From IMG/VR virus record IMGVR_UViG_3300026224_000024: DNA of 14,163 nucleotides. One strand, written 5' to 3'. Positions within the stretch are counted from its first letter, which is position 1; the number at the start of each line of letters is the position of its first letter. The stretch comes from a virus (taxonomy: Duplodnaviria; Heunggongvirae; Uroviricota; Caudoviricetes). Positions 3,592 to 12,611 of this stretch are shown here, piece after piece. A program made the position numbers and the translations under genes. The notes beneath the pieces were generated by a model that saw nothing but the letters and a program-made list of their open reading frames with translations, made no database searches and was not told where the DNA came from.

Positions 3592-4338
3592 TTACTTTTC
3601 AATACCTGGCTGACCAACATTCGGGCGCCAGCTCTCCCAGTTAAAATTCACCCAGCGCCCGCCGTTCATGGTCATGCGATCCATAATCCGCTCGCCGAGC
3701 AATGTTTTCATGGCCTCATAGTTCAGGTTTGTCAGCATTCCCACGCTACGCATCGACGCTGTCCGTCGATCAATAATCTGGTGCAGTACCACCTGCTCGT
3801 TTTTCGTCTCGCGCTGAATGCCAATTTCATCAAGAACCAGCAGCTCCACTTCGCACAGTTCCCGCAAAAATTTTTCGCCTGACTGCCCGTCGTCATAGCT
3901 GGCGTGCAGGGCGCTCATAACATCAGCCACGGTAACCACAATCACTGTCTGACCGTCTTTCAGCAGGCGATTCCCGATAGCTGCCGCTAAGTGATTCTTC
4001 CCGGTACCAGGTTTTCCGCTGAATGCAAAATTTGTACACCCGGTCATCAGTTCATCGGCGATGGATTTCGCCTGGCTTAACGCGTATCGCTGGCCGTCGT
4101 TCTGCACCTGGTAATTCGCAAACGAGCATTTACGGTGCAACGGCTGGATGCCTGAGCGATTCAGAATTTTTTCCACCCGCAACTGGCGATTCAGGCGGTT
4201 GATCTCCTCGCTACGTTTCTGGCCTTCAGCAAGTTGCCACTCGCGCCACTCCGCAACCGTTCTGAATGGAGCGGTTACATGTGGTGGGGCCAGTCTGCGG
4301 ATACGCTCCAGAACGCCTCCTGTCGCAATATTTTTCAT
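3592..4338 (-). CDS. ydaV: DnaC/IstB-like AAA+ helicase-loader (YdaV-like)
   Basis: 248 aa with a Walker A-like GKPGTGKN and Walker B LLVLDEIG. Lies immediately downstream of the replication-initiator-like gene, as the P/DnaC gene does in lambdoid phages. Confidence 0.85.
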
Positions 4339-4344
4339 GGTCTG

Positions 4345-5133
4345 TTACCCCCTGAAGCCTGGCGGGATCGCACTGTCCGGCAACGAGACGGTGTTAACCT
4401 GTCGGAGCAACGTCTCAGGCCGAACACCTTTCGGCGCGAACAGGCCCTGGTATTCATTGGCGATGCTGTGTCGAATCACCTGCTCAGGTGTAAAACCCTG
4501 CTGACGGAATTTTTCCAGTTCCCGTATCGCCCCGTTAGCGCCCTGCTCCGTTCGAATCGGTTTTCGCAATGCCTGTCTGAACCGGACCCACTCATGCCAG
4601 AGTGTTTCCGGCAACCAATCGGGCAGCTCAATAGCCTCCGGCTCGAATTTTTTAGACGCTCGTTTTTGGCGAGGGGGATTTAGGGGGAGATCAGTATTTA
4701 GATCTTCCTCTTCCTCTTCCTCTGGTAACGCTTTTTGATCCGTTTGTGTAACGCCGGCAGCGTTACCTTTTCGTTTCAGTTCACGTATTTTTGTAACTCG
4801 CTCGTTTGTAACCGCCCGTTTTTTAGAGCTTTTTCCGTTATGGCGTTCAAAGTTAGGTAGAGAAAGCCCAACGTCATTTTCGACCAGCCATCCAACCTGA
4901 ATTAACGCATCAGCAAAACCAGCCATAAAAGTGATGCGATCTATTGCACTTTTTGTAACGCCGCGAGCGTTACAATCTGCATTACCGTCTATCATTTGTT
5001 GATCCGCCCATGCCCAGAAGCGAATAACCTTCCCTAATGCGGCATCTGGATCAATATTCAGAATCTCAGCAAGCCTGAATATTTCCGGCTTATCCGGCGT
5101 AATAACCTCGAGCTTTATCCAGTTTGAAGCCAT
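4345..5133 (-). CDS. ydaU: YdaU-like putative replication initiation protein (O-like; acidic inter-domain linker)
   Basis: 262-aa ORF with an ATG at 5133 preceded by AAGGTGA. It has a central acidic linker (PEEEEEED), and iteron-like repeats lie inside its coding sequence. Precedes the DnaC-like gene. Confidence 0.75.
   Translation of the reverse strand: MASNWIKLEVITPDKPEIFRLAEILNIDPDAALGKVIRFWAWADQQMIDGNADCNARGVTKSAIDRITFMAGFADALIQVGWLVENDVGLSLPNFERHNGKSSKKRAVTNERVTKIRELKRKGNAAGVTQTDQKALPEEEEEEDLNTDLPLNPPRQKRASKKFEPEAIELPDWLPETLWHEWVRFRQALRKPIRTEQGANGAIRELEKFRQQGFTPEQVIRHSIANEYQGLFAPKGVRPETLLRQVNTVSLPDSAIPPGFRG
4724..4813. repeat. Iteron-like cluster: palindrome GTAACGC-N5-GCGTTAC (4748-4766) flanked by GTAAC half-sites at 4724-4731, 4791-4797 and 4806-4813; candidate replication origin
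   Basis: Read directly from the sequence. The cluster lies in the DNA encoding the YdaU inter-domain linker, analogous to lambda ori inside the O gene. Confidence 0.45.
4955..4973. repeat. Second copy of the GTAACGC-N5-GCGTTAC palindrome
   Basis: gtaacgc cgcga gcgttac read directly, about 207 bp from the first copy. Confidence 0.5.
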
Positions 5134-5892: not shown

Positions 5893-5996
5893 AAGGGTCA
5901 CCTTAGTAATATTCGCCAAAATATTAACCATACTAATTTAAATGATCAATACTTATATCAGTTTGAGATTATGAGCTGTGTTCATAAGATGGTGGT
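5893..5996. promoter_or_regulatory. Divergent racR / ydaS-ydaT control region with palindrome TAATATT-N6-AATATTA (5907-5926)
   Basis: 104-bp AT-rich intergenic region between divergent start codons. The palindrome is read directly. The TAATATT motif recurs at 6626-6632 upstream of ydaG. Confidence 0.5.
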
Positions 5997-6461
5997 ATGA
6001 GAAGAAAACGCGAAGAAATCGCATCGCCAGAAGCTACGCAGCGTCTACGCGGAATATGGGATGCAAAAAAAAGAGAGCTCAAATTGACTCAGGAGCTTGC
6101 TGCCGAGCTAATGGGCTTTGAGACGCAATCTACGGTTAGCCACTATCTCAACGGAAAGGCTCCACTTAACACTGATGCGGCATTAAAATTCGCAGTATTG
6201 CTAAGAGTTAAGCCTGAAGACTTGAGGCCTGATTTAGCTGATCTGATGAATTACGTCCGTTCATCTGGAACTTATGACGAAAGTTTCGAAGGCGAAGGGT
6301 GGCGGATGGTTAACAAGCAACAAGCTGATTTACTGGATCTTTTTGATATCCTCCCCGAATCAGAAAAAGCAAAACTAATCGAAAGGCTTAAAGGCCAGAA
6401 TGAACTCTACAAAGAAGCGTTTGAAAATATGCTGGCAGCTCAGAAACGCATGAAGAAATAG
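5997..6461 (+). CDS. racR: RacR-like XRE-family HTH repressor
   Basis: 154 aa with an N-terminal HTH (LTQELAAELMGFETQSTVSHYLNG) and a C-terminal coiled/dimerisation-like region. Divergent from ydaS-ydaT, as in Rac. Confidence 0.8.
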   Translation: MRRKREEIASPEATQRLRGIWDAKKRELKLTQELAAELMGFETQSTVSHYLNGKAPLNTDAALKFAVLLRVKPEDLRPDLADLMNYVRSSGTYDESFEGEGWRMVNKQQADLLDLFDILPESEKAKLIERLKGQNELYKEAFENMLAAQKRMKK

Positions 6462-6480: not shown

Positions 6481-6505
6481 AAACCGCCATCCCTGGCGGT
6501 TTTTT
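6481..6505 (+). terminator. Rho-independent terminator downstream of racR
   Basis: aaCCGCCAtcccTGGCGGtt stem-loop followed directly by a run of seven T residues. Confidence 0.75.
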
Positions 6506-6697
6506 TGTCCCCTGCGCCCCCATCGCCTTACTTTTTTATCAAAAAAAACACTAAAATTTTCATTAGGATAGTACATTTTTATCAACAAAATGCATATTTA
6601 TGTTGATCATCAATATGAATATAACTAATATTATTGCAGAAGCAGCACGGCGCTGTAGGTTTTAGTTCCGCCACCCGGCGTTAAGGGGAGAGATAAG

Positions 6698-6842: not shown

Positions 6843-6995
6843 ATGCAAAAAATCGACCTCGGCAATAACGAATCCCAGGTGTGCGGCGTGTTCCCCAACC
6901 AGGATGGAACGTTCACCGCCATGACTTATACCAAAAGCAAAACATTTAAAACAGAAACAGGCGCACGTCGCTGGCTTGCCAGAAATACTTGCTAA
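6843..6995 (+). CDS. ydaF: Small protein, YdaF-like (50 aa)
   Basis: GAGGTG Shine-Dalgarno before the ATG at 6843. Translates to MQKIDLGNNESQVCGVFPNQDGTFTAMTYTKSKTFKTETGARRWLARNTC. Follows ydaG by 10 nt. Confidence 0.6.
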   Translation: MQKIDLGNNESQVCGVFPNQDGTFTAMTYTKSKTFKTETGARRWLARNTC

Positions 6996-7193
6996 TCCAT
7001 TATTTGGATTAATTCAATATTCTCGCTGTAGGGGTATAGCAGAAACCACCAAAGCCCGGAGGTGGTGAAATAAAACCGGGCACAACACGAAGGCGCATTT
7101 CCGATATCCATAAAGAGTCGGTCTTGTCTGTTAAATTTAAATGGTGGGAGTGCGCCTCCGGTTGTGAATAACAACACTGCTGTGTGTAGTCTT

Positions 7194-7240
7194 GGCGGCA
7201 TCAGTTTTTTCTTGAAGTTCGACTGATGTCCGCCCTTTTT
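7194..7240 (+). terminator. Terminator-like hairpin (GGCGGCATCAG ... CTGATGtCCGCC, then CTTTTT)
   Basis: Imperfect 11-bp stem with one bulge and an ~18-nt loop, followed by a T-run. Read directly; the large loop makes this uncertain. Confidence 0.35.
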
Positions 7241-7241
7241 A

Positions 7242-7396
7242 AAGTGAATTTTGTGATGCGGTGAATGCGGCTAAGCGCACGCGGCACAGTTAAAAGTCAT
7301 GTTAGTCCTTATTGGTTTGGGTGGGAAAGCCGACTGTAATTGTTAACTGGTTGCAGTCACCTGGAGGCACCAGGCACCGCATCACAAAATTCACTT
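7242..7396. repeat. Perfect 22-bp inverted repeat pair (7242-7263 and 7375-7396) bracketing a 111-bp spacer
   Basis: aagtgaattttgtgatgcggtg at 7242-7263 is the exact reverse complement of caccgcatcacaaaattcactt at 7375-7396. The right arm ends 21 nt before the ATG at 7418. Confidence 0.9.
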
Positions 7397-7417
7397 AGTA
7401 ACCAAGAAGGGAATTAT

Positions 7418-7690
7418 ATGCAAGAGATAAGTTTTGAAGTAACAGCAAAAGATGTACAGGTTAAGCCCGATTACAATCAAAAATTATGTATTGAAGTCAA
7501 TGGCGTGAAGTTATCAGACCTGATTGATTCAGTTGAAGATAACGACGCTATTATTGAAATGGTTGGAGCCGAAGAAATAGCAGAATACTTTTCAACAGAG
7601 GGGCGTCTTCATGAGCTTCTGGAAAAATTTTCATATCAGGATATCGCTACATTTCTGGAAATTAATGGTTATAAAGTTACCGAGGAATAA
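7418..7690 (+). CDS. Strongly acidic small protein (90 aa), first gene of the early-left-like operon; function unknown
   Basis: ATG at 7418 preceded by AAGAAGGG. By my count about 21 D/E versus about 7 K/R. The track ORF starts further upstream at 7340, but the ATG at 7418 has the better ribosome-binding site. Confidence 0.65.
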   Translation: MQEISFEVTAKDVQVKPDYNQKLCIEVNGVKLSDLIDSVEDNDAIIEMVGAEEIAEYFSTEGRLHELLEKFSYQDIATFLEINGYKVTEE

Positions 7691-7708: not shown

Positions 7709-7918
7709 ATGGAACGTAATCATCTAACAGCTATCAGTGCCGCACAGAGTAAATTCGCCATCGCTGTATTTTTACAGGATGAAGAAATGTTTGAGCAGGC
7801 CATTATTCAGTTTGCAATTGCGACCGGGAGTAAAATAAATGAACACTTTGTTCGCTCTTGTCATGACCGTTTTTCTGACATCAGGCGAAACTCAGGATGT
7901 TGTTACCGGAATTTATAA
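7709..7918 (+). CDS. kilR: Kil-like cell-division inhibitor (KilR-like)
   Basis: 69 aa with AGGTGG before the ATG. The segment AISAAQSKFAIAVFLQDEEMFEQAI parallels the recalled lambda Kil motif (AIQTKFTIATFIGDEKMFREAV). Sits between the acidic gene and ydaE. Confidence 0.6.
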   Translation: MERNHLTAISAAQSKFAIAVFLQDEEMFEQAIIQFAIATGSKINEHFVRSCHDRFSDIRRNSGCCYRNL

Positions 7919-8075
7919 CTCCGAATCTGAATGCAAGGCCGCAGCTATTGAGCAAAAAGTAGCTGGTGAATGTTTCCCTGTTGAGAAATTTATCCGGCCT
8001 GTAGATGAAGAAATTCCCGCAGGCCTCACAGGAGAAAATCATGAAAATAAAATGTGGTTACCACCTTTGCAATAA
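7839..8075 (+). CDS. Possible overlapping small protein with a signal-peptide-like N-terminus (78 aa)
   Basis: ATG with a GGGAGT SD. Hydrophobic N-terminus MNTLFALVMTVFLTSG followed by a Cys-containing hydrophilic region. Overlaps the kilR 3' end by 80 nt in another frame and the ydaE start. Confidence 0.3.
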   Translation: MNTLFALVMTVFLTSGETQDVVTGIYNSESECKAAAIEQKVAGECFPVEKFIRPVDEEIPAGLTGENHENKMWLPPLQ

Positions 8076-12179: not shown

Positions 12180-12223
12180 TCCAGCCTGGCGGTGTAATGC
12201 ACCGCCAACGTGAGATAGTTTTT

Positions 12224-12430
12224 ATGACAAAAACTTTGAGATATGACGATGTTAAACCATGTCCGTTTTGTGGTTGTCCATCAGTAACGGTGAAAGACAT
12301 TTCAGGATATTACCGGGCAAAATGCAACGGATGCGAATCCCGAACTGGCTATGGTGGAAGTGAAAAAGAAGCGCTCGAAAGATGGAATAAACGAACCACT
12401 GAAAATATTAATGGAGGCGTTCATGTATAA
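12224..12430 (+). CDS. ralR: Restriction alleviation protein Lar/RalR (anti type I restriction)
   Basis: Start chosen at the ATG 12224; begins MTKTLRYDDVKPCPFCGCPSVTVKDISGYYRAKCNGCESRTGYGGSEKEALERWNKR with a CxxC ... CxxC zinc ribbon. Matches recalled Rac Lar. Confidence 0.8.
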   Translation: MTKTLRYDDVKPCPFCGCPSVTVKDISGYYRAKCNGCESRTGYGGSEKEALERWNKRTTENINGGVHV

Positions 12431-12611
12431 AATTACCGCTACAATTGAAAAGGAAGGTGGCACTCCTACTAACTGGACAAGATATTCAAAATCTAAACTA
12501 ACGAAATCAGAATGCGAAAAAATGCTCTCAGGTAAAAAAGAAGCAGGCGTTTCCAGAGAGCAGAAAGTAAAACTGATAAATTTTAATTGCGAGAAACTTC
12601 AGTCCTCGTGA
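12423..12611 (+). CDS. ydaC: YdaC-like small protein
   Basis: ATG at 12423 with a GGAGG SD, overlapping the ralR 3' end. 62 aa. Position between ralR and xis, as in Rac. Confidence 0.6.
   Translation: MYKITATIEKEGGTPTNWTRYSKSKLTKSECEKMLSGKKEAGVSREQKVKLINFNCEKLQSS

Follow-up and report, generated by a model that had tools for sequence, protein, structure and literature searches.

What is encoded in the non-coding gap ahead of the toxic genes of this prophage, and how does it bear on their expression? In the window, i.e. the whole 14,163-nt stretch of DNA that was analysed, the stop codon of ydaF (DUF1391) ends at 6995 and the next gene starts with the ATG at 7418, so that 7417 is the exact end of the gap. 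The window represents a Rac-like lambdoid prophage without sieB and runs along its early-left strand. An HTH repressor (5997-6461), a YdaG-like gene and the YdaF/DUF1391 gene precede the gap, which is followed by an acidic 90-aa ORF, a lambda-Kil-family ORF and, further downstream, DUF1482, a YdaE-like ORF, RecE, RecT, and RalR with the RalA sRNA. The acidic ORF, the first gene past the leader, runs on the plus strand from the ATG at 7418 to the stop at 7690 and is preceded by the SD-like AAGGGA (7407-7412, plus strand). It showed only a weak DUF5983_N match in Pfam, and its counterpart in strain cq9 is annotated as a hypothetical protein. The lambda Kil-family ORF (7709-7918, plus strand) matched Pfam PF06301 with an E-value of 8e-8.

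Alignment revealed an identity of about 97% between 7022-7400 and the sieB-kilR intergenic region of the E. coli K-12 prophage Rac. The whole 901-bp query was matched in only 14 of 5,426 complete E. coli genomes, with strain cq9 as the best match (97%). In K-12 and most relatives, sieB (superinfection exclusion, minus strand) lies between ydaF and the RNA region. No sieB-sized minus-strand ORF was found in the ORF list of the window, and the alignment placed a junction of about 26 bp (6996-7021) where K-12 Rac has about 530 bp (sieB plus 43 bp). The spacer that follows (7022-7143), about 97% identical to K-12, was homologous to the K-12 sieB-kilS intergenic region, a divergent promoter region. 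As the original prediction had stated, no credible ORF was present in the gap. The 69-aa minus-strand ORF (6992-7201) had no match in a Pfam search, and its ATG corresponded to the CAT inside GGCGGCATCAG in the stem of a hairpin, a triplet that is TAT in DicF-type homologues. A conserved protein gene found here in relatives had been named as evidence against an RNA, and sieB is formally such a gene; however, sieB lies on the 5' side of the RNA elements without overlap, and the RNA reading was therefore not refuted. Most of what the region contains has been described before in E. coli K-12, apart from a few features not reported so far. Three connections did not appear in the papers examined: that of KilS to DicF and RprA, the shuffling of modules, and the pseudoknot together with the long-helix variant of the STnc100 core.

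The KilS small RNA, its terminator and its seed

The hairpin at 7194-7240 is the intrinsic terminator of an orthologue of KilS, an sRNA that is already annotated in K-12. The K-12 gene kilS (b4833, "small RNA KilS", ncRNA) is located at 1,418,405-1,418,502 of the MG1655 RefSeq sequence, between sieB and kilR. The orthologue in the window, assigned by homology and folding, is 97 nt long (7144-7240, plus strand) and consists of a 5' hairpin, a single-stranded seed and the intrinsic terminator. It differed from the 98-nt K-12 KilS by five substitutions, three of them just 5' of the seed, and one single-base indel over 98 columns, and both the orthology and the leader position in the Rac early-left (kil) operon, behind racR-ydaG-ydaF, were found. 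The genes that follow were different: kilR comes first downstream at the K-12 locus, whereas the acidic 90-aa ORF and then the lambda-Kil-family gene follow in the window. The 97-mer was found in 413 of 5426 complete E. coli genomes, and a match was also present in sequenced Rac-like phages, e.g. vB_EcoS-683R6, with a 'host-killing protein' annotated beneath. Folding of 7144-7240 gave a dG of -35.4 and a z-score of -3.5 versus shuffled sequence.

The presence of a terminator-like hairpin with CTTTTT, as originally predicted, was confirmed by the sequence, the fold and the orthology to KilS. On the plus strand, GGCGGCATCAG (7194-7204) paired with CTGATG-t-CCGCC (7223-7234) to form an 11-bp stem with one bulge (T7229) and an 18-nt loop, followed by C7235 and a U5 tail (TTTTT, 7236-7240). 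The hairpin was missed by a simple terminator scan because the 18-nt loop exceeded the loop limit of 8 in the scan. In alignment A2, which contained 28 distinct loci with a KilS- or DicF-type sRNA ahead of the STnc100-class core described below, the terminator stem was kept through compensatory changes, and 97% of cells were paired. The 3' end of K-12 KilS (1,418,405) mapped onto the same hairpin.

In K-12, KilS was predicted from RIL-seq, confirmed by northern blotting and shown to be Hfq-associated (Bar et al. 2021, PMC8175672). It was classed as derived from the 5' UTR of kilR, and its transcription start at 1,418,502 corresponds to position 7144 of the window (PMC8175672). An internal RNase E site at 1,418,471, i.e. 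nucleotide 32 of KilS (PMC8175672 supplement), maps to about 7175. Only about three interactions of KilS were found, and its RIL-seq partner in K-12 was yncL (PMC8175672). Neither DicF nor RprA is mentioned in that paper. The earlier suggestion that the gap may encode a small RNA was right, the RNA being the orthologue of a northern-verified and Hfq-associated sRNA, but it recognised neither that the element was already known (KilS, a relative of DicF) nor that it probably has its own promoter, as the K-12 start falls at 7144. An extended -10-like TGtTAAATT, a weak match to the consensus, was found at 7129-7137 on the plus strand with a spacing that fits a start at 7144. The candidate promoter upstream of 7144 was assigned from the K-12 start and this -10-like sequence, and the promoter-proximal 7124-7143 was identical in alignment A1, which includes K-12. 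The expression, transcription start and RNase E site of K-12 KilS presumably apply to the window copy by analogy.

The seed region (7176-7193, plus strand) was defined by its identity with RprA and by its conservation. The stretch TGCTGTGTGTAGTCTT (7178-7193) is identical to a conserved part of the Rfam RprA consensus directly 5' of the RprA terminator, and likewise to MG1655 rprA. None of 200 shuffles of the window matched this 16-mer, even with two mismatches allowed. The identity begins at AUUG in the cq9/K-12 type and reaches 20 nt, AUUGCUGUGUGUAGUCUUUG, in L205-type variants. The segment UUGCUGUGUGUA was retained in three loci (L205, L019, and L041) whose terminator hairpins differ, and the seed recurred in other prophages in a second arrangement, after instead of before an STnc100 core. 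The constancy of the seed amid varying hairpins, together with its recurrence elsewhere, therefore points to selection on the seed. The identification of the RNA of other prophages that carries a core and a KilS-like seed as PasD was rejected, since the seed of PasD is UGUGAG and its terminator is different. An RNase E cut at about 7175, as in K-12, would produce a form of about 66 nt that begins with the seed. Such a form would parallel the 53-nt DicF made by RNase E.

Pairing of the seed with yncL was possible at two sites, -43..-16 and +101..+121, and about 2% of shuffled seeds equalled it. The RprA segment selected the same 3' yncL site as the KilS seed. Analysis with RNAduplex placed UGCUGUGUGU of KilS on ACACGCUUGCA at rpoS -135, as for RprA, but for none of the sRNAs were the energies better than those of shuffles. 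The targets of the seed in the window copy are presumptive.

The pseudoknotted core and its closing helix

A repeat search showed that the terminator was followed by a perfect 22-nt inverted repeat (7242-7263 / 7375-7396), 100% complementary and with arms 111 nt apart. This repeat was real and had been placed correctly, though without coordinates, but it had not been recognised as an RNA helix that closes an STnc100-class domain. On the plus strand, its 5' arm forms an extended P1 and is a predicted RNase III target, and the 3' arm completes the closing helix. The STnc100/PasD-class core (7260-7378, plus strand), identified by an Rfam match and covariation, begins with the inner part of P1 (GGUG 7260-7263 / CACC 7375-7378) and J (AAU, 7264-7266), and contains P2 (7267-7282), a variable insert (7294-7331), P4 (7332-7339 / 7351-7358), and P5 (7360-7374). 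In addition, CAGUUAA (7287-7293), just 3' of P2, pairs with the P4 loop UUAACUG (7343-7349) to form a pseudoknot, which is absent from the consensus structure line of Rfam STnc100. The Rfam STnc100 model (RF02076) matched 7237-7421 with 38.2 bits (E 1e-6), below its gathering score of 47. Folding of 7236-7405 gave a dG of -68.5 and a z-score of -5.7, and none of 200 shuffles was as good. Scanning of the IMG/VR and GTDB genomes with the motif CACCnGGAGGCACCnGGCACC gave at least 120 loci in each. Among the matches listed, almost all were from Enterobacterales, and many genomes contained multiple copies, some of them in tandem; the window contained exactly one copy of the core motif.

Alignment A3 consisted of 46 cores that were less than 90% identical to one another, and the helices P1, P2, P4, and P5 and the invariant motifs of the family were found in these cores. 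The inner 8 bp of P1 showed many compensatory pairs, P2 was paired in 99% of cells with CG/GC/UA swaps, and P5 was paired in 100% of cells with a GC to UA swap. Overall, covariation scored 0.286 compared with 0.131 in shuffles, none of which (0 of 500) was as high, and only about 40-44% of cells paired when the partners were slid by 1-3 columns. The G-U pairs and the covariation put the structure on the plus-strand RNA. A Watson-Crick pseudoknot of at least 6 bp was present in 33 of the 46 cores, compared with 1.5% of shuffled loops, and the pairing sequences were of 31 kinds. Kinship among the cores inflates a statistic of this type, yet many separate covarying versions were seen. The helix and the pseudoknot were counted per sequence with shuffle controls; MAFFT registers shift at a 1-nt indel and at variable loops.

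The closing helix was conserved in all 28 loci of alignment A2, with 21-26 bp interrupted by no more than one single-nucleotide bulge or mismatch, irrespective of the gene that followed. Compensatory changes were seen in it, from U-A to C-G in L205 and from U-A to G-C in L055, and the extension of P1 to about 22 bp occurred only where the core comes after KilS or DicF. According to Balasubramanian et al. (PMC5069750), RNase III makes the 3' end of the 72-nt DicF, 19 nt past the 53-nt end. An end 19 nt past ...GCCGCCC therefore falls inside the homologous 5' arm, and its equivalent in the window is about 7254-7259. The 5' arm was nearly identical between Qin and the window. By analogy with this DicF end, which would apply to the window copy as well, we infer that the long helix is an RNase III site, although the exact cut is uncertain. 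In Ragunathan et al., the same 1990 DicF work is described as showing that RNase III makes the 5' end of a 190-nt precursor, and uninduced cells are described as having no transcript extending past dicF. Neither kilR nor sieB is mentioned in the main texts of the RNase III cleavage maps examined, including PMC6212723.

The leader model and the competing readings

We consider it probable that the gap serves the early-left (kil/recET) operon as its leader, composed of the KilS attenuator, a pseudoknotted leader domain and an RNase III helix. The homology, the anatomy, the covariation and the conservation of the long helix were obtained here. Transcription would start at about 7144 from the extended -10 promoter, and most transcripts would stop at the hairpin and U-run to give the 97-nt Hfq-type KilS, in which RNase E cleavage would expose the RprA-like seed. 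The transcripts that read through would fold into the STnc100-class pseudoknotted domain closed by the perfect 22-bp helix. This helix is probably cut by RNase III, as has been reported for the homologous dicF-dicB transcript. The cut would free KilS from the mRNA behind it, which would keep only a short leader and encode the acidic protein, the lambda-Kil-like protein and the genes further along. The terminator would thus serve as an attenuator, and one transcription unit would be split between a trans-acting sRNA and the toxic kil genes. A consensus scan revealed no sigma-70-like promoter between 7241 and 7417, and therefore expression of the acidic and Kil-like genes should need read-through of the KilS terminator. 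As far as the sequence can tell, read-through appears to be the only route into these two genes, in support of the original proposal that a terminator ahead of the operon gates downstream expression.

The locus would in this way gate toxic prophage genes, namely Kil-type division inhibitors and RecET, and an attenuator of the KilS/DicF type would explain how such genes are kept near-silent yet inducible. The core, with its invariant GGUGAAU, AGGCA loop and pseudoknot, exceeds the needs of an RNase III site, so part of the mechanism is missing from the leader model. STnc100-type cores, with their conserved pseudoknot, are present in most E. coli genomes.

A broader reading, which is possible but tentative and has the balance somewhat against it, combines two ideas: the STnc100/PasD core would be more than the 5' body of some Hfq sRNAs, namely an autonomous and functional pseudoknotted RNA module of phages, and KilS would mimic the 3' seed of RprA. 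Such a module would be placed beside intrinsic terminators in the operon leaders of enterobacterial temperate phages. Its targets could be RNA polymerase, Rho or RNases, for example if it were a cis-acting antitermination or stabilisation element of a new class. If true, the mimicry would give the prophage access to the Rcs/RprA regulon or a means of interfering with it.

It is rather doubtful that the STnc100-type core is itself the main actor, i.e. a cis-acting module on transcription or decay that decides the expression of the kil operon, such as a put-like RNA polymerase-binding antiterminator, a Rho-blocking element or an RNase E scanning barrier, with the long helix merely insulating the core fold. 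The covarying helices, the pseudoknot and the invariant loops argue for such a role, as do the widespread, multi-copy occurrence of the core in Enterobacterales and the lack of an N-like antiterminator gene in Rac- and Qin-type early-left operons. At every locus inspected by eye, the core was located in an operon leader or the 5' region of an sRNA beside an intrinsic terminator, in either order, although the automated count of terminator adjacency was unreliable, bulged stems being under-called. However, STnc100 and PasD accumulate as RNAs terminated right past the core (PMC8550237), so termination is not abolished, and the silencing of kilR is reported to act via NusG/Rho (PMC5793797; PMC13501541). 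No homology was detectable to put, the only known RNA antiterminator of such kind. In the Rfam search, with E-values up to 10, no STnc100 match was found in the expected put region of the HK022 record (27,000-30,500, from the IS903 copy to gene O). Homology to put RNA was therefore not supported by the STnc100 model in this expected immunity region, although a functional analogy is conceivable.

It is unlikely that the core is released by RNase III as a trans-acting Hfq sRNA like STnc100/PasD, which would make the gap a pair of tandem sRNAs. STnc100, PasD, and EcOnc27 are treated in published work as Hfq-binding prophage sRNAs, relatives in the family have RIL-seq targets, and RNase III cuts in both arms would excise an RNA of about 120 nt. 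These three RNAs and the window share GGUGAAU, the P2 hairpin, the P4 hairpin, CCnGGAGGCACCnGG, CACC, and the pseudoknot. They differ in that STnc100, PasD, and EcOnc27 stand alone as sRNAs that begin with the core and continue with seed and terminator (the UGUGAG of PasD lies downstream of its core), whereas the window core is inside an mRNA leader, after a terminator, and its P1 is extended to 22 bp. Inspection of the sequence and a terminator scan revealed neither a single-stranded seed nor a terminator with a U-tail 3' of the window core, where the helix arm, the SD-like sequence and the ATG at 7418 follow instead. The sub-threshold Rfam score also speaks against this role.

Still less probable, and very unlikely in our judgement, is that the hairpin is a mere terminator or insulator of ydaG-ydaF transcription and that the RNA upstream of it has no trans function. 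The hairpin does follow ydaF on the same strand, and 7088-7102 can pair with 7146-7160 in read-through transcripts. The K-12 orthologue, however, is transcribed from a start of its own, associates with Hfq and has partners, and in K-12 the oppositely oriented sieB separates ydaF from the hairpin. The invariance of the 14-nt seed across differing hairpins, and its recurrence in another genomic context, also argue against a mere terminator. DNA-level features (an operator, a recombination site or a MITE-like repeat), as the perfect 22-bp inverted repeat and the 10-mer AATTTAAATG common to the racR-ydaS and KilS promoter regions might suggest, or a minus-strand protein gene, are extremely improbable, since the G-U pairs would turn into A-C on the opposite strand, the helices nested in the repeat and the pseudoknot covary, and the minus-strand ORF matches no protein family and its start codon is lost in homologues. 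As a shared operator, AATTTAAATG was rejected because about one such 10-mer match is expected by chance.

Comparison with RprA, lambda N, put and DicF

The core-genome sRNA RprA (RF00034), which is controlled by Rcs/Cpx, carries the common segment at the same position relative to its terminator as KilS, and a shorter form processed by RNase E has been reported for both RNAs. Their terminators and 5' hairpins differ, and no similarity was found outside the segment of 16-20 nt. The CCCCUGAG part of the rpoS-pairing region of RprA is absent from KilS. The Rfam RprA model gave 25.4 bits on the window (E 1.8), compared with a gathering score of 70, so KilS is not a full-length member of that family. 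The identity of the KilS seed with a conserved segment of this core stress sRNA predicts shared targets or competition.

The leader proposed here resembles the lambda N leader, a structured early-left leader RNA that is cut by RNase III, and the put RNAs of HK022, which act on the transcription complex. Both likenesses are functional analogies only, with no sequence or model similarity to the window RNA in the stretch of HK022 that was searched, and the architectures are different.

Another of the closest known systems was DicF. The synteny of the Qin dicBF region is that of Rac, with a repressor, a DUF1391 gene, an sRNA, a structured leader and a division-inhibitor gene, and the window RNA was found in the DicF-type position, with a gene of the DUF1391 type on one side and one for a division inhibitor on the other, an intrinsic terminator at its end and the long helix after it. 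The Rfam DicF model (RF00039) gave 42.8 bits (E 7e-8) on the window and 39.1 bits on K-12 KilS, both below the gathering score of 48, whereas a genuine DicF in a Qin-like locus scored 71.5 bits and was directly followed by an STnc100-like match. KilS and DicF share UUGGCGGyAUCAGUUUU, the 5' half of the terminator, and CCGCCCUUUUU, and the long helix and core downstream of DicF are nearly identical to those of the window. The 5' seed of DicF, UUUCUGGUGACG, and the 3' half of its hairpin, through which it pairs with ftsZ (PMC5069750), both differ in KilS (columns 80-135 of alignment A2). DicF is processed from a transcript that starts at dicBp, whereas KilS has its own transcription start. Judged from these alignments, KilS is a paralogue of DicF that carries another head. 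The 28 loci formed a mosaic in which a KilS or DicF seed was combined with the constant core and with the acidic gene, kilR, dicB or another first gene, and one locus (L026) was a natural chimera of a DicF head and a KilS-type hairpin. KilS and DicF are thus alternative 'heads' on one conserved module, and prophages appear to swap their sRNA seeds by recombination.

The region between the repressor gene and KilS

A clean terminator-like hairpin followed by a T-run was located on the plus strand at 6481-6502, directly 3' of the RacR-like repressor gene. With this hairpin behind the repressor gene, ydaG-ydaF probably have a promoter of their own within 6503-6697. Further downstream, the superinfection exclusion gene sieB was missing at 6996-7021, whereas the same spot was occupied in K-12 and most relatives. 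About 26 bp stood there in place of about 530 bp in the related locus L002 (3200-3726), and the former upstream region of sieB was retained at 7022-7143.

The last ten nucleotides of this retained segment formed the 10-mer AATTTAAATG, which includes the palindrome ATTTAAAT. Two copies were found in the window, one in the racR/ydaS divergent promoter region (5935-5944) and the other directly 5' of the KilS start inferred from K-12 (7134-7143). The 10-mer could be an operator common to both promoter regions, although chance alone would give about one such match. An inverted repeat of 15 nt with 80% complementarity (7088-7102/7146-7160) also spanned the KilS start, so that the 5' end of KilS can pair with sequence upstream of it. 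This pairing would be confined to transcripts entering from ydaF and, by analogy with the RNase III cut reported to generate the 190-nt precursor of DicF, the sRNA of prophage Qin, may provide an additional processing site.

Rearranged seeds, terminators and STnc100 cores

The module order was reversed in locus L193 (9402-9625), in L003, L005 and L194, and in about 25 further IMG/VR loci, where the STnc100 core was followed after 10 nt by the UGCUGUGUGUAGUC seed, as in KilS, and a DicF-like terminator. These elements were located upstream of DUF2303 and YfbR-like genes, close to genes for a Q antiterminator and a porin. The encoded RNA was ruled out as PasD, the stand-alone prophage sRNA of the STnc100 class, because the PasD seed is UGUGAG. 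A natural chimera on the minus strand of L026 (1378-1683) joined the DicF 5' seed to a KilS-type terminator hairpin, which suggests recombination inside the common UUGGCGG segment.

Tandem STnc100-type cores, two or three per ~1 kb, were found in L311 (Citrobacter braakii, 3813-4737), L013, L098 and L022. Inspection of L098 by eye revealed a separate terminator for every core, and the clusters resembled sRNA gene arrays. The core part of the query (7257-7381) also matched the P1-like phages P7 (AF503408, 72453-72568) and D6 (NC_050154, 6915-7035) with 77-81% identity, and thus the module was not restricted to lambdoid phages. In the Qin-like locus L227 (2465-2938), DicF was followed by an STnc100-like leader and then by a truncated dicB. 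Next came isrK, the C4 antisense RNA and a Rha-family regulator, and the series ended with an intact dicB; the locus is a dicB leader with an inserted P1/P7-type c4 immunity cassette.

Downstream genes compared with Rac

RalA, an antitoxin sRNA, was identified at full length on the minus strand at 12429-12607 (Rfam RF02694, 218 bits), overlapping the end of a plus-strand RalR-like ORF (12197-12430) and otherwise lying immediately past that end. The two form Rac's type I toxin-antitoxin pair. Closer to KilS, a lambda Kil-family ORF (PF06301, 7709-7918) overlapped the start of a DUF1482 ORF (7839-8075) in a different frame. Rac of K-12 carries kilR, whereas the window prophage has this Kil-like gene in its place.
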